DNA of 30,540 bases. Source: Nitrospinota bacterium. GTDB lineage: Bacteria > UBA8248. Of this stretch, positions 5,101 to 26,915 are shown piece by piece. Location: contig JASLZZ010000004.1 in NCBI GenBank assembly GCA_030754595.1, forward strand, positions 1-30,540, given 5' to 3'. Each line of letters begins with the position of its first letter. Positions within the stretch are counted from its first letter, which is position 1. The notes below the pieces were generated by a model. It was given only the letters and a program-made list of their open reading frames with translations, had not been told where the DNA came from and did no database searches. Both the position numbers and the translations under genes were made by a program.

Positions 5101-6563
5101 GTCCACGGGGCGCGAAGCCAAAAAGAGGCGCTGCCTCAAAGCGCACCGCCCCAAAGCGCCACGCTTCTGGGCGCAAAAAAAATAAACGGCCGGCGTCGCC
5201 CGCCTCCCCGACCATGATCTCGATCCAATCGGGGGCGGACCCGGTCCGCGAGGCGGTCCACCGGGCGCTCATCGCCTTCAGCCGGCGGCCCTCGAACGCA
5301 GAAAATCTGATTGATCGTTTTTCGCCGCGCGATTTCGGGGCGAGGGACCGCGCGTTTTTCCGCGAACTCCTCTATGGTTCGCTTCGCTGGCGGGGCCGCC
5401 TGGACGCGGCCTACGAGCGTTTCCTGACCGAGCCGGCCGGGTGTCTCTCCGGCCCCGCGCGCGAGGCCCTTCGCCTCGGAGCCTACCAGATCATGTTCAT
5501 GGACCGGGTCCCCAACCACGGGGCGGTGAACACCTCGGTGCACCTGGCCGGGCAGGAGGGAGGACGCGGTGCGAAAGGGTTGGTTAACGCCGTTCTTCGC
5601 CGAGTGTCGAGGGAGCCGCTGGGGCCGCCGAAGAAGATCGAGGATCGCCTCACCGTCTGGGAGTCTCACCCCCGCTGGCTGGTCCGCCGCTGGCTCGCCG
5701 CTCTGGGGCCCAAGGCGGCGCGGGCGCGGTGCGAGGCGAACAACGCCGAGGGGCCGGTGGTCCTGCGGGCGAACCCCTGGATCTCGGACGCCGCCTCGCT
5801 GGCCCAAAAACTCGCTGCCGAGGGGGTGGAGACCGAGCCGGGCCGAGTCGATCCCGACAGTTTGTGGATTAAGCCCAAGGGAGGCGGGCAGCCCTCCTTC
5901 ACGAAGACCGCCTCCTTCGCCGGGGGCGCGTTCATCGTCCAGGACGAGTCGTCCAGCCTGGCCGCGCGTTTCGCCGGGACCGGGCCGGGCCACCTGGTGC
6001 TCGACGCCTGCGCCGCGCCGGGTGGGAAGGCGGCGGTGATGGGCTGGATGGCCGGAAAAAGGAGAGTGGTCACAGCCGCCGATAACTCCCGGGGCCGGCT
6101 CAGGCGGCTCAAAATCAACTGTGCTAGAATCGCTCTCCCGGTCCGGGTAGTCGCGATGGACGCGGGAAATCCCGCCTTCGGCGAGGCGTTCGACACCGTT
6201 CTCGTGGACGCGCCCTGCTCGGGGGTCGGCGTGCTCCGCCGCCACCCGGACGCCCGCTGGCGAATTCAGGAAAAAGACCTCGCCCGGCACCGGGCGTCGC
6301 AGTTAGAGATACTCGCGGGAGCGGCCCGGACCGTGCGTCTGGGCGGATGGCTCACCTATTCGGTCTGCACGAACGAGCCAGAGGAGACCGACGATGTGGC
6401 CCGGTCGATGGGCCGCGCGGGGTTTGTACGCGATTCGGGGGTGGCCGCTCTTCCCGCCGCTGCGCGCGCCTTCGCCGACGAGGATGGGGCGCTTCGCATC
6501 CTCCCGGAGAGCGGACTCGGGCTCGACGGGTTTTTCGCCGTCAGGTGGCGGCGCGAGGGGTGA
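5097..6563 (+). CDS. rsmB: 16S rRNA m5C967 methyltransferase RsmB/Sun
   Basis: NusB-like N-terminal domain (LRLGAYQIMFMDRVP, LVNAVLR), QDESS, DACAAPGGK, DAPCSGVG and YSVCT; follows fmt. Start uncertain because of a basic N-terminal extension. Confidence 0.95.
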   Translation: MSPRGAKPKRGAASKRTAPKRHASGRKKNKRPASPASPTMISIQSGADPVREAVHRALIAFSRRPSNAENLIDRFSPRDFGARDRAFFRELLYGSLRWRGRLDAAYERFLTEPAGCLSGPAREALRLGAYQIMFMDRVPNHGAVNTSVHLAGQEGGRGAKGLVNAVLRRVSREPLGPPKKIEDRLTVWESHPRWLVRRWLAALGPKAARARCEANNAEGPVVLRANPWISDAASLAQKLAAEGVETEPGRVDPDSLWIKPKGGGQPSFTKTASFAGGAFIVQDESSSLAARFAGTGPGHLVLDACAAPGGKAAVMGWMAGKRRVVTAADNSRGRLRRLKINCARIALPVRVVAMDAGNPAFGEAFDTVLVDAPCSGVGVLRRHPDARWRIQEKDLARHRASQLEILAGAARTVRLGGWLTYSVCTNEPEETDDVARSMGRAGFVRDSGVAALPAAARAFADEDGALRILPESGLGLDGFFAVRWRREG

Positions 6564-6565
6564 AC

Positions 6566-7504
6566 ATGGTCCGCACACTCTTCAGAGGGATCGTCTGGAC
6601 CATCTTTCTGGTGGCCCTGGGCGGGGTGGCCGGCCTCGGGGCGATCTATGTTTCGCGCGGGGGCGAGGGCGTGGCTCTGCCCCGGGTGGTGGGCCGGGAC
6701 ATCGTCCGAGGCCTTGAGATGCTCAGCGAGCGGGGGATTCCCCTCGAGGTGAGCGGCTGGGTCTTCAGCGACGAGGTGCCCCAGAACCACATCGTGAGCC
6801 AGCTGCCCGCCGGAGGCGGGCGGATTCGCAGGGGGAGAACCGTCTCGCTCGTCATCAGCCGGGGCGCGCGCGATGTAGCCGTACCGGCTGTCGTGGGCGA
6901 GGACCTGAGCCGCGCCGAAACGCTGGTGCGGCTGAGGGGCCTGCGCGTCGGCCCCGTCGAGCGGGCGTTCGACCCTGCAAGGCGCGTGGACGAGGTGCTC
7001 GGGGTATGGCCCCCCAAGGGCAAGAACGTCCGCCGGGGGGACCAGGTGGTCCTCCTCGTGAGCCAGGGGCCCAGGGAGCGGGCCTACGCGATGCCCGCGC
7101 TCATCGGCGAGGGGATCAACACCGCCCTTGACCGGGTGCGACAGGTCGGGCTGACGGTCGGGCGCGTGCGCTATGTGGATAGGGAGGGGACGAAGCGCGG
7201 CACCATCGTGGCCCAGATTCCGCAGGTGGGCCAGCGCGTCCTGGCGGGCCAGCGGGTGCATGCGGACGTGGCGCGCGGCTCCCAGGCGCTGGTGGGCAAT
7301 TTCAGCGTCTTGCGCTACCGGGTTCCGCCCGGCCGGCCCCGCCGCCGGCTCCGGGTCGAGCTCGATTCCGGGGGAGAGAAAAAGAACGCTCTTGACCGGG
7401 AGGTCCGTGCGGGCGAGGAGATTCATCTCATGATCTCCGTCAAGGGCAAAACCTGGGCGAGAATTTATCTCGACGACGAGCTCATCGAAGAACAAGACCA
7501 CTAG
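6566..7504 (+). CDS. Membrane-anchored PASTA-domain protein (3 PASTA repeats, no kinase domain)
   Basis: N-terminal TM helix, then repeats starting LPRVVG, VPAVVG and MPALIG, each followed by a (S/V/A)-(Q/W)-x-P-x-x-G segment and ending in V-x-x-G. Alternative start GTG at 6560. Confidence 0.9.
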   Translation: MVRTLFRGIVWTIFLVALGGVAGLGAIYVSRGGEGVALPRVVGRDIVRGLEMLSERGIPLEVSGWVFSDEVPQNHIVSQLPAGGGRIRRGRTVSLVISRGARDVAVPAVVGEDLSRAETLVRLRGLRVGPVERAFDPARRVDEVLGVWPPKGKNVRRGDQVVLLVSQGPRERAYAMPALIGEGINTALDRVRQVGLTVGRVRYVDREGTKRGTIVAQIPQVGQRVLAGQRVHADVARGSQALVGNFSVLRYRVPPGRPRRRLRVELDSGGEKKNALDREVRAGEEIHLMISVKGKTWARIYLDDELIEEQDH

Positions 7505-14070: not shown

Positions 14071-14423
14071 GCCGGAGCCGAGGGGCGGAAGGCGAGGAGG
14101 CCGCCTGCCGGGTTCTCCGGCGCGGCGGCTACAAGATTCTCGCGCGAAACTACCGGGGTCCGCGCTACGAGGTGGACATCGTCGCGCGCGAGGGAGATGT
14201 CATCGCCTTCGTCGAGGTTAAGATGCGGGCGCCGGGCAGCGAGGAGAGCGCCGCCGCCATCGACGCGCGCAAGCAAAAGCGAATCACACGCGCGGCCGAG
14301 CACTACCTGATGACTCACCCCGAGGCGCAGGGGGTCCAATGCCGGTTCGATGTGGTGTTGGTGGAGGCGGAGGCCGGCGCTAAGCCGAGAGGGGGCAGGC
14401 TGATGCGGGACGCTTTTCGCTAG
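14067..14423 (+). CDS. yraN: YraN (UPF0102) family protein
   Basis: GAEGEEAA..L...GYKILARNYR, EVDIVA, FVEVK and RFDVV; GTGA overlap with the rnhB stop. Confidence 0.92.
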   Translation: MSRSRGAEGEEAACRVLRRGGYKILARNYRGPRYEVDIVAREGDVIAFVEVKMRAPGSEESAAAIDARKQKRITRAAEHYLMTHPEAQGVQCRFDVVLVEAEAGAKPRGGRLMRDAFR

Positions 14424-15271
14424 CGGCGCTTTTCGGGTTTGACGAGAACGCCGTCCACATCTCCGTAATAAATGGCATCCTCCACCGTCGTGGCGACGGG
14501 GACCATTTCGGGATCGAGCCAGACACGGACTTCCCCCGTTTCCTGTCCGAAGAGGTTTTTCGGGACTTTGACGAGGACGAGCAGCCCTTTCTCCCCCGAG
14601 CGGCCGAACCGCTTGCGGTAGGCGCGCTCGGCTTCGGCGGTGGGAATCCGGATCTCGAATTTCTGGAACTCCTCCTCCTCGCTGTCCTCTCCTTCGTTGG
14701 TCGCTTTCGCTTTGTAGTTTGGCAGTGTGAAAAGCGTAATATTTCGGCCGCGCTCAACCGGCCCGAGCCCTCCGATGCGGAAATTGAAAAGGCCGGAGAG
14801 GAGATCCTCGACCCGAGCGCCCTCGGGGATTGGATCGTGTCCCTTTCCGTAAAGCTTTTCGCGCCAAAAATACTTCCACTTCACCATTCCGCTTTCGGTG
14901 TCGATGACCGCTTCGGTCCGCTCGACGCCCGCCTGCTTACGGACCTGCTTGATGTAGAGGCGGCTGATGAAGCGGCGCCGGATGGGATCGAACTCCATTT
15001 CGCTGATATAGTGGTTTTCCCTTCCGTACATCAGAATGCCCGCGAGCCCTTTCGTTTCGGCGGTCAACTCGGCCCTGTAGCGTCTCCCGCCGATAGGGCG
15101 GATCGACAAGCGCCCCTGAGCCGCCTTCGTGAACAACAAAAATTGAATGTTGTAGGTGAACGACTCCGAGCGCGGCTCCGGCGCGGCGGCGGGGGCGCCT
15201 ATGCCAGAGAAAACGGCGGCGGCGATAAGTGCCGCCGCGCAAAATAGCTTCGCTGAAAAGTGCGTTGTCAA
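14420..15271 (-). CDS. Exported beta-rich protein, DUF3108-like
   Basis: Signal peptide (LFCAAALIAAAVFSG...AAA), E-x-F-x-Y-x-I, G-x-L-x-I, DLLSGLFNFR and VRVWL. TTG at 15271 is preferred because it lies 13 bp after the restored HD-GYP stop. Confidence 0.72.
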   Translation of the reverse strand: MTTHFSAKLFCAAALIAAAVFSGIGAPAAAPEPRSESFTYNIQFLLFTKAAQGRLSIRPIGGRRYRAELTAETKGLAGILMYGRENHYISEMEFDPIRRRFISRLYIKQVRKQAGVERTEAVIDTESGMVKWKYFWREKLYGKGHDPIPEGARVEDLLSGLFNFRIGGLGPVERGRNITLFTLPNYKAKATNEGEDSEEEEFQKFEIRIPTAEAERAYRKRFGRSGEKGLLVLVKVPKNLFGQETGEVRVWLDPEMVPVATTVEDAIYYGDVDGVLVKPEKRR

Positions 15272-15284
15272 AGGGAAATAATTC

Positions 15285-16632
15285 TCACTGGTTGGTGGGC
15301 AGTTCGGATTCTTCCACCTCATCGACGATATAGAGGAGAGGGAATTCCCTCAGCGATATAAAGCGGTCTTCCCCTATTTCGTTGCCGTCGGCGTCGAAAA
15401 TAAGCTGGACGACGGCACCGGAGGGGTTGCCCCGGAATTGTTTCGGTCACCCGGCCAATGGCGTTTGAATTCAGGCGGACCAGGCTGTTTAGCGAGAACG
15501 CCGAGAGCTCCTCGATCATCACCTTGAGGAGGCGCTGGTGGAACTGAACCTTTTGGGTCTGAACGATTTCCTGGACCGCTTTGTGCGGGAGCAACCGCTT
15601 GCGCTGAGGCCGGTGGTGAGTGAGGGCCTCGTAGACGTCGGCGAGCCCGATGATCTTTCCGTACTCCGATATCTGGCTTCCGGAAAGCCCCTGAGGGTAT
15701 CCCCGCCCGTTTTTCCGTTCGTGTTCGTGATAGACCGCCTCGGCGAGCCAGCTGAACTGATCGCCGTACATGTGCATGACGATCTCCATCCCGTACTGCG
15801 GATGGCTGCGGATTTCGGCGATCTCCTCGGGGGTCAGCTTGCCTTCCTTATGGCGGATTCCCTGGGAGATGGCGCACATGCCCACGTCGTGAATCAACGA
15901 GGCGACGCCGAGGCGGACGAGGCGGTCCTGCGACCACTTGAGGCCGATTCCCAGTTTCATCGAATAGACCGTGTGATTGAACAAATGAATTGCCATCGAA
16001 TTCGACTCGTCGATAACGCTGACGGCCAGGTTGTAAAGATTCTCCATGGCGTCGGGCTCTTCGATGAAGTCGTAGATGATGTCCTCGGCCTCGTCGAGCG
16101 GAGGTTTTTCGTCCTCGGCGATGGCCTGTAGAAAACCGATGATGAACTTGAGCGCCCGCTCCCGGAGAGGGGTATGAGGGTTGTTGAGAAGCGGGTCGAT
16201 GATAGAGGACTCGACGCCGGCGCCTTCTCCGCCGATGGATTCGGGGCCGGCCAGAACGGAGCGCCGGGGCCTTTTCTTTTCGGGCTCGCCCGCGGCCGCC
16301 TCGGGCGCGCGCCGGCTTTCATGGCGCAGATCCCGGGTGGGCGCGGCGGCGTCATCGAAGGGAGAGGGAGCCGCTTCCTCATCCTCGGGCGCGTGCCGGA
16401 CCTGTGGTGCGCCCGGCAAATCCAGCATGGGCGCCGCCTCCTCCTCCTCGGCGGGGATGGCCGCGGGGAGATCGGGAATGGGGGCCGCCGTTTCCTGAAG
16501 CTCCTGGAGGTTTCCCAACTCGCTCAGGCGAAAAGTCTCTTCTTTCGCGGGCGGCGGAGCGGCGGGTTTTTTCTTCTCAGGATCTTTTTTCGGGCCCTCG
16601 GGTTCGTCTTTGATCAAATCACTCAGGCGCAT
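15285..16632 (-). CDS. HD-GYP domain phosphodiesterase-like protein with an apparent one-base insertion near the 3' end
   Basis: IHDVGM, HPQYG, EHERKNGRGYPQGL and ADVYEALT..RP. The uninterrupted frame stops at 15319, while the family-like tail continues in the shifted frame to TGA at 15285-15287. Confidence 0.9.
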
Positions 16633-16635
16633 GGC

Positions 16636-17442
16636 CTATACCTCACCCTCGCTGTCGCTGATGACCTTATCCACCAGTTTACGATTAATTAGAGGGACCT
16701 TATAAGTAAATCCGACGAGGAGACACAAGTCGCACAGGTTGACGATCCGCCTCGGAATTTCTCCCGAGGCGTTGAAAATGTTCTTGATGGCTTCCTCCGA
16801 GAAGATGCTTTTATTCAGCCCGCCGACCTTGAGCCGGAAGAAAATGAATTTTACCGTATCCGTATAGTCCAGCGGACTGAGGGGGTACTTGATGGATATT
16901 CGCTGGCTGAGCTGGGGGATTTTCGCCACCTTCTTCAGAAGTTCGGGCTGGCCGACCAAGGTGAGGGTGAGCAAAAAACGGTCGTTCATCTGAAAATTCA
17001 GAAGAAGGCGAAGCTCTTCAAGGGTTCTTTTGTCCTCGATGGCCTGCGCTTCGTCGATGATGACGATCGTATCCTTGTCCTCCTGAATATTAGCCAGCAT
17101 TTTCTCGTTGAGGAGGCGGAGAAGATCCACCTTGGAAGTCGTGTCCTCCTGGACATCGAGCTGATAGAGGATCTCCTTGATGAAATCGACGGGCTCGAGG
17201 CTCGGGTTGGCGACCAGGCCGACATCGAAGCGCTTCGAATCGAGCTGGCGGATAAACGCGCGCGTCAGTGTGGTTTTTCCCATGCCGGCGTCGCCCGTCA
17301 GCATCGCCGCCCCCTTTCTCCCCTGGGCCGCGTAGATGAGACGGGTCAGCGCCTCCTCGTGCTTGGGAGAAAAGTAGAGAAAATCCGGGTTCGGAAGATT
17401 CTCTAAAGGAGGAACCTTTAAACCCCAATATTCAAGATACAC
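16636..17442 (-). CDS. ExeA/GspA-family AAA ATPase (ATPase domain only)
   Basis: MYLEYWGL..PP, Walker A GDAGMGKT, Walker B IIDEAQ, LEELRLLLN, LVGQPEL and GEIPRRI. Confidence 0.92.
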   Translation of the reverse strand: MYLEYWGLKVPPLENLPNPDFLYFSPKHEEALTRLIYAAQGRKGAAMLTGDAGMGKTTLTRAFIRQLDSKRFDVGLVANPSLEPVDFIKEILYQLDVQEDTTSKVDLLRLLNEKMLANIQEDKDTIVIIDEAQAIEDKRTLEELRLLLNFQMNDRFLLTLTLVGQPELLKKVAKIPQLSQRISIKYPLSPLDYTDTVKFIFFRLKVGGLNKSIFSEEAIKNIFNASGEIPRRIVNLCDLCLLVGFTYKVPLINRKLVDKVISDSEGEV

Positions 17443-19035: not shown

Positions 19036-21657
19036 CTAGCTTTTGAGTTCCATCAGGCGGGAGAGGCTCTCCTGGAGCTTTTGCTCCCGGCCGCGCTCTT
19101 CGTCCAGGGCGCCGCGGTTCTTTTCGACGACTTCCTCGGGCGCCCGTTCGATGAAATTGGGGTTGGAGAGTTTCTTTTCGAGAGCGCCGATGGTCTTGGC
19201 GATGTCGGCGATCTGCTTTTCGAGCCGGCTGATCTCTTCATCCACGTCGATCAAACCTGCGATGGGAACGAAGGACGCCGTGTTTCCAAAAACGGCGGAC
19301 GCGGAAGCTGCGGGCTGTTCGGCGCCTGTGCCGATAACGATGTCGCCGCTGATGTTTCCGAGCCGCAGGAACCATTCCAACTCTTTTTCTATGAGATTTT
19401 TTTCCGTCTTGTCTCCGGGACGGATAGTGGGTGTGATTTCTCTCTTGGGCGAAATATTGAGTTCGCCGCGGATGTTCCTGATGCTGCCCAGTATGCCGGA
19501 CAGATATTCAAAATCTTTTTCCGCCGCCTGATCGTCCCAATCGGGCTCGGGCTCGGGCCAAGGAGCGATCACGATGCTCTCACCCTCGCGGCCGGGGAGC
19601 TTCTGCCAGATCTCCTCGGTAATGAAAGGAACGATGGGATGAAGAAGGCGAAGGGTGCGCTCGAGCACGCGGCCCAGGACGGCCTTGCTCGTCTCTCCGC
19701 CGCTCTCCACCATCAGGGCCGGTTTGATAACCTCGATGTACCAGTCGCAAAGCTCGTGCCAGGTGAACTGGTAGAGGGCGAGGGCGGCGTCGTTGAAGCG
19801 GTACTCCTCGAGGGCGGTGTCCACCCTCCGAGTCACATCGTTCAGGCGGCTGAGTATCCACCGGTCACCCAGGGAGAGCTCTCCGCGCGGAGGGATGTCG
19901 GGCAACGCCTCGCCCATGTTCATCAAGGTGAAGCGGGCCGCGTTCCAGAGTTTGTTGCAAAAGTTCCGGAAACCCGAGATGCGCTCCTCCGAGAGGCGGA
20001 TGTCGCGGCCCTGGGCGGCCATAGCCGTCAGCGTGAGGCGCAGCGAGTCGGTGCCGAACTTCTCGATAATATCCAGGGGGTCGACCACGTTGCCCCGCGT
20101 TTTGCTCATCTTGTGGCCGTGCTCGTCACGCACGAGGGCGTGGATGTAAACGTCGCGGAAGGGAACATCGTCCATGAACTTGAGGCCCGACATGATCATC
20201 CGGGCCACCCAGAAGAAGATGATGTCGAACCCGGTGACGAGAACCGAGGTGGGGTAGAAGTAGTCCAGGTCGCGGTTTTTTTCCGGCCAGCCGAATGTCG
20301 AGAACGGCCACAGCGCCGAACTGAACCAGGTGTCGAGGACATCGGTCTCGCGCCGGAGCTTCGGGTCCTCGGGGTCCTCGCGCGAGACGACGATCTCGCC
20401 CGTCTCATCGTTGTGCCAGGCCGGAATCTGATGGCCCCACCAAATCTGGCGGCTGATGCACCAGTCGCGGATATTCGTCATCCACTCGAAATAGGTGGCT
20501 TCCCACTGCTTGGGGACGATGCGAATCCGCCCGTCCTTGACGGCGCGGATGGCCTCCTCGGCGAGCGGTTTCGTGCGCACGAACCATTGTTTCGAAAGGT
20601 AGGGTTCGATTGCGGTGGCGCAGCGATAGCACTCGCCCACCGAGTGCGAATGGTCCCTGACCCCGCGCATGAGCCCGAGGTTTTCGAGATCGTCGACCAC
20701 CCGCTTCCGGGCCTCGTAGCGGTCCATGCCCTCGTAGTCTCCGCCGTTGGCGTTGATGGAGCCGTCCGGGTTGAGGATGTTGATCTGGGGAAGATCGTTC
20801 CTGAGCCCTGCCTCGTAGTCGTTCGGATCGTGGGCGGGGGTGACCTTGACGGCGCCGGAGCCGAATTCGGGATCGACAAACGAGTCGGCGATGACGGGAA
20901 TCCGCCGGTCGAGAAGCGGCAGGCGGAGCATCTGGCCGACGAGGGGCTTGTAGCGCTCATCGTCCGGGTGTACGGCGACGGCAGTGTCGCCCAGCATGGT
21001 TTCGGGCCGGGTGGTGGAGATGGTGAGGCCCTCGCCTCCCTCCCATAGGGGATAGTGGAAATCCCACATATGGCCGCCGCGGTCCTCGTACTCCACCTCG
21101 AGGTCGGAGACCGCGGTTCCGCACCGGGGGCACCAGTTGACCAGATAGTCGCCCTGGTAGATCAACCCCTCCTCGTAGAGGCGGACGAAGGACTCGCGGA
21201 CGGCCCGCGAGAGACCCTCGTCCATGGTGAAGCGTTCACGTTCCCAGTCGCATGACGCGCCCAGCCGCTTGAGTTGGCGGATGATGGTGCCGCCGCTCTC
21301 CTTTTTCCAACTCCAGACGCGCTTGACGAACTCCTCGCGGCCCAGCTTTTCCCGGCTCAGGCCCTCGCCGGAGAGCTGACGCTCAACCACGTTTTGGGTG
21401 GCGATCCCGGCATGATCCATGCCGGGCATCCAGCACACATTGAACCCCTTCATCCTCTTCCAGCGGGCGAGGATATCCTGAAGGGTGTTGTTCAGGGCGT
21501 GGCCCATGTGAAGGGAGCCGGTGACGTTCGGCGGGGGAATGACGATAGCGAAGGGCTCGCGGCTATCGTCCGCTTTCCCGTGGAAGTAGTTTTCCTCCAG
21601 CCAGTAAGCGTACCACCGGTCTTCCGCCGCTTTCGGGTCGTAGCGGGGTTCTAACAA
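19036..21657 (-). CDS. valS: Valine--tRNA ligase
   Basis: PPPNVTGSLHMGH, DHAGIATQ, TTRPETMLGD, DWCISRQIWWGH, KMSKT and a C-terminal coiled coil. Confidence 0.99.
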   Translation of the reverse strand: MLEPRYDPKAAEDRWYAYWLEENYFHGKADDSREPFAIVIPPPNVTGSLHMGHALNNTLQDILARWKRMKGFNVCWMPGMDHAGIATQNVVERQLSGEGLSREKLGREEFVKRVWSWKKESGGTIIRQLKRLGASCDWERERFTMDEGLSRAVRESFVRLYEEGLIYQGDYLVNWCPRCGTAVSDLEVEYEDRGGHMWDFHYPLWEGGEGLTISTTRPETMLGDTAVAVHPDDERYKPLVGQMLRLPLLDRRIPVIADSFVDPEFGSGAVKVTPAHDPNDYEAGLRNDLPQINILNPDGSINANGGDYEGMDRYEARKRVVDDLENLGLMRGVRDHSHSVGECYRCATAIEPYLSKQWFVRTKPLAEEAIRAVKDGRIRIVPKQWEATYFEWMTNIRDWCISRQIWWGHQIPAWHNDETGEIVVSREDPEDPKLRRETDVLDTWFSSALWPFSTFGWPEKNRDLDYFYPTSVLVTGFDIIFFWVARMIMSGLKFMDDVPFRDVYIHALVRDEHGHKMSKTRGNVVDPLDIIEKFGTDSLRLTLTAMAAQGRDIRLSEERISGFRNFCNKLWNAARFTLMNMGEALPDIPPRGELSLGDRWILSRLNDVTRRVDTALEEYRFNDAALALYQFTWHELCDWYIEVIKPALMVESGGETSKAVLGRVLERTLRLLHPIVPFITEEIWQKLPGREGESIVIAPWPEPEPDWDDQAAEKDFEYLSGILGSIRNIRGELNISPKREITPTIRPGDKTEKNLIEKELEWFLRLGNISGDIVIGTGAEQPAASASAVFGNTASFVPIAGLIDVDEEISRLEKQIADIAKTIGALEKKLSNPNFIERAPEEVVEKNRGALDEERGREQKLQESLSRLMELKS

Positions 21658-21660
21658 AAG

Positions 21661-23622
21661 CTATTCTCCGCGTTTGATTTTTTCGATTTCACGGGTGACG
21701 ATTCTTTCGACCATATCGGGAAGCTGTTCGACGACCATGGTCTCGATTCGCCGGAGGAGAGCAGGGACAATCGCCTCGACGGTTCGCTCCAGGCTTTTCT
21801 GAATGCTGGCGGTGGCGAGGCCCTCGCCCTCAGCATCCCCGGAAAGGGATGTTTCCAAAACTGGCGCCGCTTCATCGGCCTCGGCAAGAGGGAAATCCTC
21901 CGGAAGCGGAGAGATAAGCTCTTCCTCGAAAGGGGTGCCCGCGTCCTCTTCCTCCGAAATGGTTTCGAGGGCTGGGGCCGAATCAGTTATCTCTTCGTCA
22001 AATTTCTCTTCTTGGGGGATAGCGAAAATTTTGGGCGATTCGGACGGCGTTTCATGCTCGGATTCCTCCTCGATTTCGAGCTGCTCCCAGAACGCCTCGT
22101 CTAAAAGGTCGTCTTCCGTTTCCAGGGTCTCCCCGGGAAGGGTTTCGGATTCCGGAGCGGGTTCCTCAAGGGCGTTCTCGAAATCGCTGTCGATCTCGGA
22201 GATGAGCCCGCCGGTTTCCCCGGCCGCCTCTGCTTCCCCGGTGTCCTCTTCGAGAGAGGCAGGCTCGTGAAACTCCATTTTATCGAGAAATTGCTCGGTC
22301 TCGATGGCGGAGGTTCCGTAATCGGTTGTCCCTGAGGCGGCCTGGGCTTCCGGAGCGGCGGGGTCATCCACCGTCTCATCCGAAAGCTCTTCCTGAAGTG
22401 AGGCGAGTTCCTCCTCGGCCGCCTGGACCTGATCGTCGGCCAGGTGTTCGAGGCCACCCTCGTCGACATCATTTGGCGCATCGAAGTCGGCTGCCAGCTC
22501 GGATTGCAGGGCGGCGAGTTCGGCTTCCGCCTCCTCCAAACCTGGGGGATCGTCCAAATCGGTCAACAAGGATTCGACCTCGGGTACCCCCGAAGTGCCG
22601 TCCTCTGGAGACGCATCACCCTCGGCCAAGGATTCAAGTTCATCGGCAAGGGCGTTTTCCGCCGCCAGAAGGGTCGCATCGATATCTTCATCCAGGTCGG
22701 CTTCAGGGGCGGTGTCCGAGGTTGAGGGAGCGGCCTCGCCCGCGTCGGACTCGGGGGCTTCAGCTTCAGAGTCGACAGCTTCGGGGACGCCGGTTTCCTC
22801 GTTTTCCTCACCGATGGAGGCAAAATCGTCCGCGAGGGTGTTTTCTATCGCCAATTGGGCGGAGTCGAGTTCCTCCTTGCCCGAAACCTCATCGGCGCTC
22901 TCCTCTTCGCCTTCGTCGAATTCATCCAGGAATTCATCCAGCCCCATATCCGCCAGGAGGCCTCCCTCCTCGTCGGCGGTAGATACGGCTTCCGCCGGCG
23001 CATCGGGGGTGCTTTCCTCGGCGGCGGCTTCTCCGGCCTCAGGTGGCGGAATTTCGAGGGATACATCCTCGCCGAGACTCTCGTCCATGAGATCCTCGTC
23101 CATATCCTCGAAATCGAGCGGAGCATCCCCGGCTCCCGCCCCTTCGTCCAGTTCGGAGGGCACCTCGATTTCGTCGAAAATATTCTCCTCGCCCTCCGCG
23201 AGGGGCTCCTCAGCTGAGGGCTCCGCCGCCGCTGCGGCCTCATCGCCGCCGCTCGGCCCGGCCAACGCCTTTTCGACCTCGGCGAGCAGGCTCTCGGGCT
23301 CGAAAGGTTTGGTGAGCACCCCGATGGCTCCGGCCGCGACGGCCTCGTCGCCGTTGACCTCCTCCTTGGCGCTGGCGAGAAGAAGGACGGGGATAGCGGC
23401 CAAATCTGCGTCCTCCTTGAAGGCGCGGCACAGATCGAACCCGCTGTTTCTCTTGAATGTTGTGCTGGCCAGGATGAAATCGGGCTTGAGACTCCGGGCG
23501 AGGGTCAACGCCTCTTCGGTGTCCTCGGCCGAGTAGACGGATATATCGAGCCCCTCCATCGTCAACTCCACGACGCGATGAATCAGGGGGCTCTCGTCCA
23601 CCAGAAGTAGGTTGCTCGCCAT
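21661..23622 (-). CDS. RomR/PopZ-like protein: atypical receiver domain, long acidic linker, C-terminal helical domain
   Basis: CheY-like N-terminus (LLLVDES...KPF), about 480 aa rich in E/D/A/P, and C-terminus LPDMVERIVTREIEKIK; ends 3 bp upstream of valS. Alternative start TTG at 23631. Confidence 0.8.
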   Translation of the reverse strand: MASNLLLVDESPLIHRVVELTMEGLDISVYSAEDTEEALTLARSLKPDFILASTTFKRNSGFDLCRAFKEDADLAAIPVLLLASAKEEVNGDEAVAAGAIGVLTKPFEPESLLAEVEKALAGPSGGDEAAAAAEPSAEEPLAEGEENIFDEIEVPSELDEGAGAGDAPLDFEDMDEDLMDESLGEDVSLEIPPPEAGEAAAEESTPDAPAEAVSTADEEGGLLADMGLDEFLDEFDEGEEESADEVSGKEELDSAQLAIENTLADDFASIGEENEETGVPEAVDSEAEAPESDAGEAAPSTSDTAPEADLDEDIDATLLAAENALADELESLAEGDASPEDGTSGVPEVESLLTDLDDPPGLEEAEAELAALQSELAADFDAPNDVDEGGLEHLADDQVQAAEEELASLQEELSDETVDDPAAPEAQAASGTTDYGTSAIETEQFLDKMEFHEPASLEEDTGEAEAAGETGGLISEIDSDFENALEEPAPESETLPGETLETEDDLLDEAFWEQLEIEEESEHETPSESPKIFAIPQEEKFDEEITDSAPALETISEEEDAGTPFEEELISPLPEDFPLAEADEAAPVLETSLSGDAEGEGLATASIQKSLERTVEAIVPALLRRIETMVVEQLPDMVERIVTREIEKIKRGE

Positions 23623-23743
23623 TGGTGTCAATCTCCGCCCGGGCGCCGGCCGGATGTGGGGTGTGGATGCGAGGTTCGGGGCGGGGTGCAGGCCGTCAAG
23701 GCATCCGGCTACGCCAAATATAAATGAAACGCAACTGCCGCCA

Positions 23744-23773
23744 ATTTCCGCTAAATCATGCCATTTCCGCTAA
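23744..23773. repeat. 11-bp direct repeat ATTTCCGCTAA x2
   Basis: Exact copies at 23744-23754 and 23763-23773 in the intergenic region between mltG and the RomR/PopZ-like gene. Confidence 0.7.
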
Positions 23774-24856
23774 TTACCGGTCAACCTTCCCTCTTCGAAG
23801 TTGATAGCGGCGAACAGCGCTCTGGTGCTCCCTGTAGGAGCGCGAGAATTTATGCCCCCCCTGCCGGGTGGCGACGAAATAGAGATAGTCCACCGGAGCC
23901 GGGTGAAGGGCCGCCCGGATGGAGGCGAAACCGGGATTGGCTATCGGGCCGGGAGGCAATCCTTTGTAGCGGTAAGTGTTGTAGGGGGAATCGTAGGCCA
24001 GGTCCCGGCGGCGGATGTTTCCATCGAAGCGGGGCAGGGAGTAAATGACGGTGGGGTCGCTCTGAAGGCGCATGTTCCGCCGGAGGCGGTTCACGAACAC
24101 GGCGGCGACCAGTGGGCGCTCGGATTCAACCGAGGTTTCTTTTTCGATGATCGAGGCAAGGGTCAGCGTCTGGTGAAATGTCAGATCCCGCTCGGCCGCC
24201 CGGCGGCGCAGATCGGGGCCGAATTTCCGCCGGAGGGTGTCCACCATCCGGGCGAGAATTTTTCGCGGCTTGGTTTCCAGCGGAAAGCGGTAGGTATCGG
24301 GAAACAGATAGCCCTCAAGCGAGGCCGCCTGAATCTTGAGGGAGGCGAGGAAAGCGGAATCGGCGGCCAGCGCGAGGACCTCCCGCCGGGAGCCGAAGCC
24401 GGCTTTTTCGATGGCCGAGGCGATTTCCCGGAGATTGTACCCTTCGGGAATGGTAAGGGCGCGCTGGGCCACCCGGCCCTCGGTGATGTCCCGGTAAATA
24501 TGCCGGGGAGTCATCGATGGGCTGAGGAGGTATGCGCCCACGTGAATCCGGTCGGCTCCGCCGTGCAGACGGGCCTGGAGCCGGAACAGGTCCGGGCTGC
24601 GGATAAGCCCCCGCTCCCCGAGGGCCCGGGAGATTTTCCCGAGCCCCATTCCAGGTATTACCCTGAAAATAATACTTTTCTTCCCCGGCGGGGCGGCCGG
24701 AAGGTCGAAATCGCGCTCGATATACCAGTACCCCCCTCCCGCGGCGATGGCGAGCGTCAATAATGCGGCGATGAAAAAAGGGCGGCGGAACTTTCCGCCG
24801 AAAAAAGAGGCGGGAGAGATGTCGTCCCTCGGGCCGGCCGGTTCGCCTTCGCTCAA
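23774..24856 (-). CDS. mltG: Endolytic transglycosylase MltG (YceG)
   Basis: N-terminal TM, TIPEG, LEGYLFPDTY, LASIIEKE, LQSDPTV and SPYNTY..GLPPGPIANPG. Confidence 0.97.
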   Translation of the reverse strand: MSEGEPAGPRDDISPASFFGGKFRRPFFIAALLTLAIAAGGGYWYIERDFDLPAAPPGKKSIIFRVIPGMGLGKISRALGERGLIRSPDLFRLQARLHGGADRIHVGAYLLSPSMTPRHIYRDITEGRVAQRALTIPEGYNLREIASAIEKAGFGSRREVLALAADSAFLASLKIQAASLEGYLFPDTYRFPLETKPRKILARMVDTLRRKFGPDLRRRAAERDLTFHQTLTLASIIEKETSVESERPLVAAVFVNRLRRNMRLQSDPTVIYSLPRFDGNIRRRDLAYDSPYNTYRYKGLPPGPIANPGFASIRAALHPAPVDYLYFVATRQGGHKFSRSYREHQSAVRRYQLRRGKVDR

Positions 24857-25287
24857 GGGCGGGGCCTCGCAGCGCTCTTGAGGTCCAGGTAGCCCTGGAG
24901 GATGAGCTGGGCAGCGATGGTGTCGCGGCGCTCCTTGCGGCGGCTTCGCCGCACATCCATCTCGACGAGGGCGCGCTCGGCCTCCGAAGAGCTCAGCCGC
25001 TCATCACAGGCCTCGACCTTGATGTCCAGGAGCTTTCGGAGCCGTGAGATAAACCGGCGGGTTCGTTTCGTCTGGGGCGAATCACCGCCCGAGAGGTTGA
25101 GGGGAAGGCCGACTATTATACGCTCGACCTCGTGGGCCTTGGCGAGTCCCTCGATCTCGGAGGCCACCTGCGCGTCGGTTTCGCGTCTGATCGTCTCGAG
25201 CGGCTGGGCGGTGATGCCCAGCGGGTCGCTCAGGGCAAGCCCGACCATTTTTTCTCCGTAGTCGAGCGCCATGATCCGTGGAATCAT
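24853..25287 (-). CDS. ruvX: YqgF/RuvX family nuclease
   Basis: ALDYGEKMVGLALSDP, IIVGLP, DERLSS and D..AAQLILQGYL; ATG at 25287 overlaps the tolC stop (ATGA). Confidence 0.95.
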   Translation of the reverse strand: MIPRIMALDYGEKMVGLALSDPLGITAQPLETIRRETDAQVASEIEGLAKAHEVERIIVGLPLNLSGGDSPQTKRTRRFISRLRKLLDIKVEACDERLSSSEAERALVEMDVRRSRRKERRDTIAAQLILQGYLDLKSAARPRP

Positions 25288-26915
25288 GGTTTTTCGCCCG
25301 GCACGCCTTTTCGGGGGTCGCCCAGCTTGATTTTGAGTCGCTTGAAGGTGGTATAGGTGGCGCGTCCCAGCTGAGCGACGCTTTTGTTGTAATCGACGAG
25401 GGCCTGGACCTCGTTGGTGAGCGCGTTCGCCACGCTCTCCTGGTCCTCGAGGACATCCCGGCTCGTGGAGAGGCCGACCTTGAATTTCTTCTCCTGGGAA
25501 TCGAGGCGCTCCACGGCCAACCGCCGGGCGAGGCGGGTGGCCTCGATGCGCTTGGTGTCGGTGCGCACCCGCCGCACGCTTCGGCGGACTTCCTCGATGA
25601 TCGATTGCTCGAGCCTGGCGAACGAGGAGTTGGCGCGCTGAAGCTGGAGACGCGCCTTGTCGAACTTTGCCTTTGCGGCGCGGTTTCCGAGGGGAAGCCG
25701 GAAGGAGAGGCCGCCCTCGAAGGTATAGCCCTTGTTCCCGGATTCGCGGTCGATGGATTTTCCGAAAGTTTTCTCCGCCCCCTGATTGGATGCGCTGGCG
25801 GACAGGTCGAGTTCGGGGAGAAGGTTCTGACGGTCGCGATGGAGCTGGATCCGGCTCTTCTCGATTTCGATCTTCGCGTTCTGCAGATCGGCCCGCCTTT
25901 TGAGGGCTTCCATAGTGGAGGTCAATTCCTTGACCCGGACCGGCGAGAATTGAGCCTGGTCGGAAGGGATGATTCGGAGTCCCCATGAGGAAATATTGTC
26001 TGAGACGTTCAGGAGTTTTTTCAGGGCGTCCTCGCGGTCCTTCACCTGGCGCTCGGCGACGATGACTTCCTCCTCCCGGCGGGCGACGGTGGCCTCGGCC
26101 TCGAGAATTTCGATGGGAGCGAGCGTGCCCACATCGACCTGAATCTGGTTGCGGCGGCGAAGATCCTTCGCGAGTTCCAGCGATTTTCGTTGGAACGCGA
26201 TGTTCGAGATGGAGAACACGAGGTCCCAGTAGGCCTGCTCCACGCTGTCGATGACCGAGATCACGCGGTCGCGGTAGATGAGGAGGGACTGGTCCAGCGA
26301 GAAAGTAGCCACCCGGATTTCGGCCTTGTTGACATCTACGCCGAAGTTTTTGAGAAGAGGCTGTGAGATAGAGAAGGTGAGGCTCGAGTCGAAGTCCGGG
26401 TTGATGGTTTTTTGCCGGGAGTTCGAGTCCTCCCGCACCGTTTCGAAGACGAGAGATATTTCGGCGCCGGTGACGAGCTTCTTCTCGATGCCGGCGGAGA
26501 CTGTCTGCTCGCTGGAGGTTTGCTGACCACCGCTCGCGAGAAGGCTGCTCGGGGTGTCGGCCCTCGATTTTTCGGTACTGACCTCGGACGTGAATGCGGA
26601 GTCGAAGACGGATTCCCGCTCAACCACCTCCCTCTCGCGGATGCGGGGGTTGTGGGCCTCGATGGTGATGTCGAAATTTCGCGCGAGGGCCAGCGTGACG
26701 GCCTCGCGGAGGGAAAGTTTCAGGCGCCGGCCCGATATTAAGGGAGCCATGGAGGGCGCGCTGGGCCGCTCGAAAAAGAGCTTCTTGATTGGAGGCTCCG
26801 AGGTTATCGGGGCCTCCGGGACCAGGGGCGCCGGCGCCCCCCAGGCGGCGGCCATCGGGAAAATAAACAAGGCGGCGGCGAATCGTGTGAATGAAACGAA
26901 TCTCGGTTTTTTCAT
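25284..26915 (-). CDS. TolC-family outer membrane protein
   Basis: Signal peptide, LSLREAVTLALARN, SQPLL, VEQAYWDL, LLPELDL and a duplicated helical efflux-protein architecture. Confidence 0.92.
   Translation of the reverse strand: MKKPRFVSFTRFAAALFIFPMAAAWGAPAPLVPEAPITSEPPIKKLFFERPSAPSMAPLISGRRLKLSLREAVTLALARNFDITIEAHNPRIREREVVERESVFDSAFTSEVSTEKSRADTPSSLLASGGQQTSSEQTVSAGIEKKLVTGAEISLVFETVREDSNSRQKTINPDFDSSLTFSISQPLLKNFGVDVNKAEIRVATFSLDQSLLIYRDRVISVIDSVEQAYWDLVFSISNIAFQRKSLELAKDLRRRNQIQVDVGTLAPIEILEAEATVARREEEVIVAERQVKDREDALKKLLNVSDNISSWGLRIIPSDQAQFSPVRVKELTSTMEALKRRADLQNAKIEIEKSRIQLHRDRQNLLPELDLSASASNQGAEKTFGKSIDRESGNKGYTFEGGLSFRLPLGNRAAKAKFDKARLQLQRANSSFARLEQSIIEEVRRSVRRVRTDTKRIEATRLARRLAVERLDSQEKKFKVGLSTSRDVLEDQESVANALTNEVQALVDYNKSVAQLGRATYTTFKRLKIKLGDPRKGVPGEKP

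Follow-up and report, generated by a model that had tools for sequence, protein, structure and literature searches.

The window (the whole stretch of DNA that was analyzed, 30,540 nucleotides, from a Nitrospinota bacterium) contains a series of genes on its reverse strand that runs from a TolC-like outer-membrane protein to a valine-tRNA ligase, with a protein named "response regulator" in the databases directly ahead of the latter. A receiver fold heads this protein, a polyanionic disordered linker of 480 aa follows, and a helical tail of 50 aa completes it. The features of the locus, in order of coordinate, are as follows.

19036..21657, minus strand: valS (valine-tRNA ligase), directly downstream (Pfam tRNA-synt_1 at E 4.5e-148, Anticodon_1, Val_tRNA-synt_C)
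21655..21669, minus strand: valS junction, with GGAG in the last two codons (G-E), stop TAG, a 3-nt spacer, and TTG (from the sequence)
21661..23622, minus strand: coding sequence of the scaffold-like protein, 653 aa, stop codon included, start ATG at 23622
21664..21825, minus strand: conserved helical tail, residues 603-656, RomR-C-like and PopZ H3H4-like (AF2, Pfam, NCBIfam, hhalign, BLASTP)
21826..23259, minus strand: polyanionic, mostly disordered linker, residues ~125-602 (composition, AF2)
22063-22116, minus strand: predicted linker helix, residues 506-523, similar to that at 319-337 (AF2; partly conserved)
22372..22539, minus strand: best conserved linker island, helices at residues 365-383 and 393-420 (relatives' alignment, AF2)
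22621..22677, minus strand: predicted linker helix, residues 319-337 (AF2; partly conserved among relatives)
22807-22863, minus strand: predicted linker helix, residues 257-275, also similar to that at 319-337 (AF2; partly conserved)
23275..23607, minus strand: receiver (REC) fold, residues 9-119 as counted from the TTG of the 656-codon ORF (Pfam, PDB, AF2)
23464..23466, minus strand: Ser56 codon, where receivers have the phospho-acceptor Asp (alignment to three solved receivers)
23717..23744, minus strand: promoter-like hexamers TTGGCG and TATATT, 16 nt apart, within the 150 nt preceding the gene (consensus scan)
23774..24856, minus strand: yceG/mltG-like gene, directly upstream (Pfam YceG, E 4.1e-91)
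~24853-25290, minus strand: ruvX, between mltG and the tolC-like gene (Pfam RuvX, E 2.7e-42)
25284..26915, minus strand: TolC-like outer-membrane efflux protein, three genes upstream (Pfam OEP, E 6e-39)

The longest ORF (21661..23631, minus strand) has 656 codons and is opened by a TTG at 23631. The original prediction placed the gene in exactly this ORF; the frame stands, but the start does not. Because M-A-x-N starts are common to 16 aligned relatives and a database twin at 99% identity is 653 aa long, the real start is the ATG at 23622. With conservation across 35 genome loci and approximately 100 protein clusters, a chance ORF can be dismissed. Antisense or otherwise spurious ORFs (e.g., 22595-23536 on the plus strand) were rejected, given that the conserved frame is the one on the minus strand. 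The promoter-like sites in the region number three versus 0.6 expected, a count that comes from a consensus scan only and is no evidence of function.

The linker contains 165 D+E versus four K+R over 480 aa (net charge -161), and its composition (E 22.7%, A 15.2%, D 11.7%, P 7.1%) agrees with the very acidic, P/E/D/A-rich stretch of about this length that had been predicted. Most of it has a pLDDT < 50 (AF2), and it is weakly conserved in both sequence and length, with clade proteins spanning 220-668 aa. In the best conserved island, each of the two helices bears a motif of the A-E-x-E-L-A-x-L-Q-x-E-L type (pLDDT up to 87, AF2); among 125 Nitrospinota-type proteins the motif occurs in 25, all of at least 302 aa.

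The C-terminus, which reads in the ORF translation letter for letter as first quoted, is predicted to be helical over residues 603-654 (pLDDT 84-92, AF2). A profile of 18 such tails, run against 1.84 billion proteins, retrieved 323 representative sequences with E <= 1e-3. Among the best 137 of these 323 matches, 86 have a Response_reg domain, usually at residues 6-116, and most of those lacking it are short fragments. The tails of the matched family combine W-x-x-x-P with abundant Glu, and the same two features appear in the description of RomR-C in PMC3441718. We refer to this large receiver-linker-tail family as RomR-type because it fits the description of RomR given there; the label therefore rests on that description and not on a Myxococcus RomR sequence, and the set, gathered with a mostly Nitrospinota tail profile, is enriched for Nitrospinota-like members. 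An HMM built from the RomR-type tails alone gives the window protein 28.3 bits (p 1e-10), and hhalign pairs the tail with the RomR-type tails at 97.5% (E 5.7e-12, 48 columns). By these comparisons, the tail and the C-terminus of the RomR-type family, as identified by description, are homologous. The RomR architecture that had been proposed is thus borne out to the extent that the tail belongs with a family of receiver, acidic linker, and helical tail.

The likeness to the RomR family extends over the whole plan: a receiver at about residues 6-116, a variable acidic and disordered linker (~27-30% D+E and ~2.4% K+R in both groups), and a Glu-rich helical tail of ~50 aa with its Pro. In addition, valS also follows the gene in three Desulfuromonadales RomR-type members. 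There are differences as well. In the alignments the Trp described as invariant in RomR-C, four residues ahead of the retained Pro, is absent from the Nitrospinota-type tail, where the position is occupied by Val. Helices of the A-E-x-E-L-A-x-L-Q-x-E-L type, present in the window linker, were found in none of the RomR-type linkers (0/80 proteins). The two groups also differ at the receiver (see below). RomR-C has been described as unique to RomR, without homology to characterized domains, and RomR residues 369-420 as sufficient for pole localization (both in the account of RomR in PMC3441718).

The same tail is picked by both curated models of PopZ, as the best or the sole match outside the receiver. 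Pfam DUF2497 (PF10691) matches it with E 3e-5 over model positions 31-75 of 75, and NCBIfam PopZ_fam (NF052660), its sole NCBIfam match, does so with E 2.8e-5 over positions 116-167 of 167. Because the scores lie under the curated cut-offs (24.8 bits against 27 for DUF2497, 25.4 against 125 for PopZ_fam), we do not consider the protein a member of the PopZ family. Across relatives, PopZ_fam is listed for 13/15 Nitrospinota-type tails and DUF2497 is matched at E <= 0.1 in 14/17 family members; Pelovirga-type tails alone match neither PopZ model (0/3). Direct comparison with the tail of a Sinorhizobium PopZ (itself 87.5 bits on DUF2497) gave E 8e-8 by BLASTP, at 33% identity over 48 aa, and 93.3% by hhalign. 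The PopZ-like tail of the original prediction is supported by these matches, and the profile check that it had suggested, run here against DUF2497 and RomR-type tails, found similarity to both; the sequence-based checks that it had listed all spoke for it. What requires revision is the picture of a RomR architecture carrying a PopZ-like tail: both likenesses hold, but the tail is not a foreign PopZ tail, as the RomR-type tail is itself PopZ-like. On the profile evidence, the Nitrospinota tail is the RomR-type version closest to PopZ.

Other searches were less informative. In the ESM Atlas, a cluster with DUF2497 in 54% of its members ranked second for the tail (0.81) and sixth for query P0169 (0.80), although all matches were <0.9 and are to be taken as leads only. 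In the PDB, the tail profile found no solved relative (one Rab27B match, E 1.1). Searched among longer proteins (E <= 10), the tail profile retrieved its own family alone (98 proteins, none with PF10691), and residues 597-656 searched among shorter proteins likewise retrieved only family members. A three-copy complex prediction for the 62-aa tail scored 0.02 against a mark of 0.42, was run without controls, and weighs neither way.

Like the window protein, PopZ has an acidic disordered region followed by C-terminal helices that end L-P-x-L-V-E-R-x-V-x-x-E-I-E-x-x-x-R-G. Unlike it, PopZ has no receiver (a short N-terminal client-binding helix, in Shinella and Sinorhizobium, stands in place of the 120-aa receiver here), and the window protein is two to three times as long. 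Further, the window tail has no match to model positions 1-30 of DUF2497, its H2 region. The text of PMC6414705 describes PopZ as a protein of Alphaproteobacteria, and the window lineage is Nitrospinota.

Gene neighborhood provides a second line of comparison. The survey of valS adjacency that had been suggested found valS directly downstream of the family gene in 35/35 relatives' loci, three of them those of the Desulfuromonadales RomR-type members. In the 32 Nitrospinota/Tectomicrobia loci, yceG/mltG lies upstream in 30 (the remaining two contigs start at the family gene) and the TolC-like gene is present in 27 (the other five end at contig edges). The TolC-like gene was correctly foreseen three genes upstream; the intervening genes are ruvX and mltG/yceG. 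Directly downstream valS and an upstream tolC are shared with PopZ loci, tolC being the immediate neighbor in Sinorhizobium and the third gene upstream in the window. The gene popZ lies directly before valS in 3/3 Rhizobiaceae records, and the original statement that it often sits between tolC and valS holds for one Sinorhizobium record, which reads tolC-popZ-valS. That valS follows popZ in A. tumefaciens and C. crescentus as well is noted in PMC5686542; in one paper that names both popZ and tolC, the PopZ passage is silent on gene order. A literature search joining RomR with valyl-tRNA found nothing.

One alternative is that these resemblances are convergent: a short amphipathic helix rich in Glu, Ile, and Arg could mimic PopZ (and perhaps RomR-C), the valS neighborhood could be a coincidence in a few lineages, and the protein could be a lineage-specific acidic disordered protein with some other role (e.g., linked to ValRS or to the mltG/tolC envelope genes). 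The scores on the curated PopZ models, all of them subthreshold, speak for this, and much of the signal falls within the last 20 residues (fragments score 17-24 bits on DUF2497 model positions 56-75). In a tblastn search of a plasmid collection with the tail, the Sinorhizobium match reached only E = 2, and the block tolC-ruvX-mltG-gene-valS-birA-coaX is conserved as a unit in Nitrospinota. However, the lone match within a 3.7-Mb alphaproteobacterial record sits inside popZ, and the two proteins, like the two models, match co-terminally. A three-way alignment of Nitrospinota-type, RomR-type, and PopZ tails has invariant P, E, E-I-E, and G columns (one Pro, three Glu, one Ile, and one Gly across three phyla), and the adjacency to valS recurs in Nitrospinota, Desulfuromonadales, and Alphaproteobacteria despite differing other neighbors. 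We regard convergence as unlikely.

The N-terminal domain is a receiver, as first proposed: Pfam places Response_reg at residues 9-119 (E 3.9e-15), solved PDB receivers are matched with E down to 1e-13, and AF2 predicts the beta-alpha fold at pLDDT ~86-92. A point that the original prediction did not contain is that it is a pseudo-receiver. Its "ilaS" aligns with "ilTD", "imLD", and "iiSD" of three solved receivers, so that Ser occupies the acceptor Asp position. In the receivers of 93 distinct relatives this residue is Ser in 83, Gly in 10, and Asp in none; 79/80 RomR-type receivers retain the Asp. By alignment, the phospho-accepting Asp is lost throughout the Nitrospinota-type clade, which still keeps the K-P motif Lys together with one or two acidic residues of the pocket. 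Nor does the window receiver appear specifically RomR-like. On an HMM of RomR-type receivers it scores 101.8 bits, RomR-type members at least 146, and six multi-domain response-regulator proteins without a RomR-type tail 79-134; by this score, unrelated receivers come as close to the RomR-type ones as it does.

These results bear on a second alternative, to which we also assign a low probability, that the protein is a true RomR ortholog: as in Myxococcus and Bdellovibrio, it would recruit a RomX-like partner and switch on an MglA-type GTPase at a single pole to steer surface motility by type IV pili or gliding. The three-part plan and the homologous tail are common to both, RomR is reported to co-occur with MglA/MglB in 26/31 genomes (in the survey within PMC3441718), and in Pelovirga two CheW-like genes precede that of the relative, a chemosensory link. 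Against it, the acceptor Asp is gone in every one of the 93 relatives, which excludes Frz-like input, and the Trp of RomR-C is missing. A scan of the 42 ORFs in the window for MglA-, MglB-, or RomX-like genes identified none, and a search for literature joining RomR or MglA/MglB with Nitrospina found nothing. Cultured Nitrospina are described as non-motile, which counts against the motility part of this reading. Finally, an ordinary two-component response regulator with an output switched by phosphorylation, as the database name, the receiver fold, the K-P Lys, and the remaining acidic pocket residues might imply, is very improbable given the loss of the acceptor Asp in all 93 relatives, the lack of an output domain in Pfam and NCBIfam (in particular, of any DNA-binding or enzymatic domain in Pfam), and the lack of a kinase gene among the adjacent window neighbors in Pfam.

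The explanation that we favor, at a probability of roughly 0.6, is that the gene product is a self-assembling scaffold of the RomR/PopZ kind, cytoplasmic and independent of phosphorylation; the proposed function rests on the homology of a 50-aa segment. The protein may form condensates and lie at the pole, as first suggested. The tail would drive self-association and accumulation at the cell pole, for which RomR-C in Myxococcus and the H3H4 trimeric coiled coil of Caulobacter PopZ may serve as models. The acidic linker would keep assemblies apart via charge repulsion, and its short conserved helices could be displayed to bind client proteins. The receiver without its Asp would act as a phosphorylation-independent docking module, rather than as a kinase-fed switch. 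FrzS-type pseudo-receiver scaffolds offer a precedent, in that a receiver fold without phosphotransfer heads a long polar-localizing protein, as proposed here; FrzS differs in having a long coiled coil after the receiver, and neither an acidic disordered linker nor a RomR-C/PopZ-like tail. For PopZ itself, the relevant text of PMC12999525 describes H3H4 as a trimer and the acidic IDR as tuning condensation through repulsion.

If the scaffold interpretation is taken one step further, the matches suggest that RomR-C and the PopZ oligomerization domain share ancestry. We consider it slightly better than an even bet that the two are one ancient domain, and that romR-type genes and popZ derive from a single pre-valS scaffold gene predating the split of Nitrospinota, Desulfobacterota, and Alphaproteobacteria. 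PopZ would then be the form that lost the receiver, and the Nitrospinota protein, with a dead receiver and the tail nearest to PopZ, a living intermediate. No such link between RomR-C and PopZ appears in the papers searched. RomR and PopZ are among the best studied bacterial pole organizers and are treated as unrelated, so a protein that matches both and has a valS neighbor in three phyla constitutes a concrete, testable case for a common self-assembly module. If this is true, Myxococcus/Bdellovibrio and Caulobacter/Agrobacterium would build their polarity hubs as variations of one such module, and structural work on PopZ trimers and filaments could inform RomR, and vice versa. For Nitrospinota, which are major marine nitrite oxidizers with almost no cell biology, the protein is a first candidate polarity scaffold, and one in which a receiver without its Asp has been retained over tens of lineages.

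The junction with valS deserves separate comment. The gene ends 3 bp ahead of valS, as had been noted (TAG, 3 nt, TTG), and the spacer is 3 nt in 31/32 Nitrospinota/Tectomicrobia loci and 6 nt in one. GGAG is present in 32/32 of these loci, and valS starts with TTG in 30 and GTG in two. The last codons of the scaffold gene therefore carry a putative ribosome-binding site (the GGAG) for the TTG start of valS, a feature that was absent from the original prediction. From the stop codon, the 3-nt spacer, the TTG, and the embedded GGAG, the gene is predicted to be fused in expression to valS, a coupling that would keep the scaffold protein constitutively made. With a valS ribosome-binding site embedded in them, the invariant last residues of the protein would be constrained at two levels.

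The open reading frame on the reverse strand at window 21661..23631 (656 codons from a TTG), which the original prediction had singled out as a candidate polar scaffold, is real. Because all 16 aligned relatives begin with M-A-x-N and a database protein 99% identical to this one has 653 aa, we place the start at the ATG at 23622. The receiver-like N terminus and the very acidic linker of about 480 aa that had been proposed for the product are both there, the linker (480 aa) carrying 165 Asp+Glu versus 4 Lys+Arg, for a net charge of −161. An AlphaFold2 model based on an 18-sequence alignment has a mean pLDDT of 57, with a confident receiver fold (about 86–92) and a linker that is mostly below 50.

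Features of the scaffold gene and its product (residues numbered on the 656-codon frame)
Residues 9-119: receiver domain (Pfam, E = 3.9e-15)
Residues 257-275, 319-337, 365-383, 393-420 and 506-523: helical islands in the linker (AlphaFold2)
Residues 603-654: terminal helix (AlphaFold2, pLDDT 84-92)
Window 21655-21669, reverse strand: GGAG in GGA GAA/GAG, 8 nt before the non-ATG valS start; same junction in the Nitrospinota/Tectomicrobia loci L001-L032

Alignment of relatives reveals conserved helix motifs in the linker, namely A-E-x-E-L-A-x-L-Q-x-E-L (twice), F-W-E-Q-L-E-I-E, and E-S-P-E-I-Y-A-x-P. Two forward-strand frames, one of 313 aa antisense to the scaffold gene (22595-23536) and one of 655 aa antisense to valS (19081-21048), have no coding evidence and are typical of GC-rich DNA. 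By analogy, we read the protein as probably (at roughly 60%) a pole-targeted, self-associating scaffold of the RomR/PopZ kind.

A profile of 18 tails, 15 from Nitrospinota-type proteins (the relatives with Asp-less receivers) and three from Desulfuromonadales, was searched against 1.84 billion representative proteins and returned 323 matches at E ≤ 1e-3 (27 at E ≤ 1e-10), nearly all at the extreme C terminus. Response_reg was found in 86 of the 137 matches scanned with Pfam (from the best 150 of the 323; the other 13 had already been seen), usually at residues 6–116, and the remainder were mostly short fragments. Members of the larger receiver–linker–tail family combine a canonical receiver, in which the D-D pocket and the acceptor Asp are intact, with an acidic linker that varies among them (median 29.6% D+E) and a tail bearing the motif W-x-x-x-P-D-L-A-E...E-I-x-K-I-K. 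The name RomR-type, as we use it, rests on the Desulfuromonadales members and on the description by Keilberg et al. (PMC3441718), in which the receiver of RomR is followed by an unstructured linker and then by RomR-C, an alpha-helical region rich in Glu whose Trp and Pro are invariant. The same paper places RomR in Myxococcales, Geobacter/Pelobacter, Acidobacteria, Deferribacterales, and Aquificales, describes RomR-C as unique to RomR and without homology to characterized domains, and reports that residues 369–420 alone suffice for polar localization (PMC3441718).

The RomR architecture that had been proposed is upheld by homology of the tails. An HMM of 118 RomR-type tails alone gave the window protein 28.3 bits (p 1e-10) and scored 38 of 38 Nitrospinota-type proteins (median 27.7 bits), and hhalign of the two tail alignments gave 97.5% (E 5.7e-12, 48 columns), for a RomR-type set that was gathered with the mixed profile and is thus enriched for members resembling Nitrospinota tails. 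The RomR-C Pro is common to Nitrospinota-type tails, whereas the Trp is replaced by Val. A functioning RomR orthologue tied to MglA/MglB, a reading that could draw on this homology, seems unlikely to us; the protein falls short of the full definition of RomR, with the Asp, the Trp, and receiver-clade support all missing, and no Ras-like or Roadblock-type gene occurs within the window.

The tail also proved PopZ-like, as predicted, at scores under the curated cut-offs. Residues 611–654 match positions 31–75 of the 75 in DUF2497 (E 3e-5, 24.8 bits; cut-off 27), a model that covers Caulobacter PopZ residues 105–173 according to a table in PMC12682051, and 14 of 17 family members match it at E ≤ 0.1. 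Among 18,950 models, the window's 62-aa tail matched only PopZ_fam (NF052660; E 2.8e-5, 25.4 bits, last 52 of 167 positions; whole-protein cut-off 125), a model that 13/15 Nitrospinota-type tails (E 2.8e-5 to 0.16) and none of the three Desulfuromonadales tails matched. Two 125-aa proteins (P0111 and P0169; tail-profile E 2.4e-6 and 2.1e-5) score above the cut-off of DUF2497, at 29.9 and 32.0 bits (PopZ_fam only 20–26 bits), and so link the scaffold-tail and PopZ groups transitively. Both have two tandem copies of an L-P-x-x-A-E-x-L-V-x-x-E-I-x-R-I helix without a receiver, and their Atlas leads point to Nitrospirota. Four other proteins (P0087, P0089, P0103, P0121) have an extra ~15–20 residues between the tail halves and end in R-E-I-E-K-I/F; P0087 (398 aa) is acidic and lacks a receiver by Pfam and NCBIfam.

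A tblastn search of a plasmid collection with the tail gave a weak match (E = 2, not significant alone) to a 3.72-Mb Sinorhizobium meliloti record, in an unannotated gene between annotated tolC and valine-tRNA ligase; the intervening frame is PopZ (DUF2497, 87.5 bits). The record (L036; CP090106.1, strain Ak57, locus 6232-7161) is titled pSymB yet has the chromosomal genes tolC, valS, exoR, and xth, and its popZ is absent from the feature table and split across two reading frames. Against the PopZ tail, BLASTP of the window tail gave E 8e-8 (33% identity, 48 aa), and hhalign gave 93.3% for the Nitrospinota-type profile (E 2.7e-7, 50 columns) versus 82.9% for the RomR-type profile (E 9.2e-6, 30 columns). 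In a three-way alignment of Nitrospinota-type, RomR-type, and PopZ tails, the L-P, E, E-I-E, and G columns are invariant. The Nitrospinota tail is thus the nearest to PopZ among receiver-bearing tails. Convergence of short helices in a protein with some other role, a reading to which such short alignments and sub-threshold scores might lend themselves, is in our view comparably improbable beside these matches and the shared neighborhood. A literature search yielded no paper on a RomR–PopZ homology link and, among papers naming DUF2497, none about RomR; in passages from some of the papers naming both RomR and PopZ, the latter figures only as a tool, analogy, or reference.

The same-strand order is a TolC-like OEP gene (three genes upstream, as had been noted), ruvX, yceG/mltG, the scaffold gene, valS, birA, coaX, and genes for an AAA_22 ATPase, HD_5, and DUF3108; housekeeping genes (recA, recX, def, fmt, rsmB, rpe, ffh, rimM, trmD, rnhB, ribF) make up the remainder of the window. 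valS is the next same-strand gene in 35/35 loci. Of the 32 Nitrospinota/Tectomicrobia loci, 30 have mltG upstream and 27 have a TolC-like gene; contig ends account for the misses. valS is the sole shared neighbor in the three Desulfuromonadales loci, 175–231 nt downstream. It had been proposed that popZ often lies between tolC and valS; three Rhizobiaceae records have popZ followed by valS after 138–314 nt, with tolC preceding in at least two (tolC-popZ-valS in Sinorhizobium). For A. tumefaciens and C. crescentus, valS is likewise reported to follow popZ (PMC5686542). valS is thus the constant neighbor in three phyla whose other flanking genes differ, a pattern that is difficult to account for unless the genes share ancestry or are functionally tied.

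In Pelovirga terrestris (L034, 9098-10029; valS 175 nt downstream), the RomR-type gene is immediately preceded by two CheW-like genes, the second of which overlaps it; this chemosensory link is not present in Nitrospinota loci. The AAA_22, HD_5 (HD-GYP-like), and DUF3108 genes (window 14420-17442, reverse strand) are matched in 6/32 Nitrospinota/Tectomicrobia loci (L001-L003, L005, L006, L008; AAA_22 only in L005 and L008), and in none of the short-form Nitrospinota loci. Elsewhere, at window 6347-7504 (forward strand), a 385-aa protein has three PASTA repeats and, by Pfam, no kinase or transpeptidase domain.

The predicted 3-bp gap before valS is exact: a TAG stop, three bases, and a TTG start, and no terminator-like site was found between the two genes. 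The gap is 3 nt in 31/32 Nitrospinota/Tectomicrobia loci (6 nt in one), and valS starts with TTG in 30 and GTG in two. Because GGAG lies within the last two scaffold codons (Gly-Glu) in 32/32, the invariant K-R-G-E end doubles as the valS ribosome-binding site and is constrained in both roles, and the two genes are probably coupled in translation.

Ser56 (“ilaS”) aligns with the acceptor Asp of three solved receivers (“ilTD,” “imLD,” “iiSD”). Of 93 distinct Nitrospinota-type receivers, 83 have Ser here, 10 have Gly, and none has Asp, versus Asp in 79/80 RomR-type receivers; the domain is a pseudo-receiver that has lost its acceptor. An ordinary phospho-switch, in whose favor every receiver compared retains the K-P motif Lys, is very hard to credit with no Asp at that position.

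A mechanism for the preferred scaffold can be sketched on the anatomy, homologies, Asp loss, and coupling signals that the analysis establishes. The tail would self-associate and target the protein to the poles, as do RomR-C and PopZ; in PopZ, H3H4 assembles into a trimeric coiled coil from which hexamers and filaments are built, and the acidic IDR restrains condensation via repulsion (PMC12999525). By the same analogy, the polyanionic linker may act as spacer and tuner, its conserved helices as docking sites, and the Asp-less receiver as a constitutive binding module. The protein would thereby work like RomR and PopZ but satisfies neither full definition, being for PopZ without the N-terminal client helix and sub-threshold in score.

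A single scan covering 185,579 species genomes recovered 35 loci, 32 of them in records titled Nitrospinota/Nitrospinae, Tectomicrobia, or “bacterium” and three from Desulfuromonadales (two Pelovirga records and one MAG). Among full-length relatives, source names include “response regulator [Nitrospinota bacterium]” and “[Nitrospinaceae bacterium],” and short forms of 241–350 aa share the head and tail. Nitrospinota-type lengths are bimodal (220–302 aa and 348–668 aa; e.g., 253 aa in locus L009 versus 653 aa in the window), with the linker the sole difference. A-E-x-E-L-A-x-L-Q-x-E-L helices occur in the long class alone (25/125 proteins, all ≥302 aa). One short-form relative (P0044, 348 aa) has a ~90-aa non-acidic insertion of ordinary sequence mid-linker that looks like a folded domain or inserted element.
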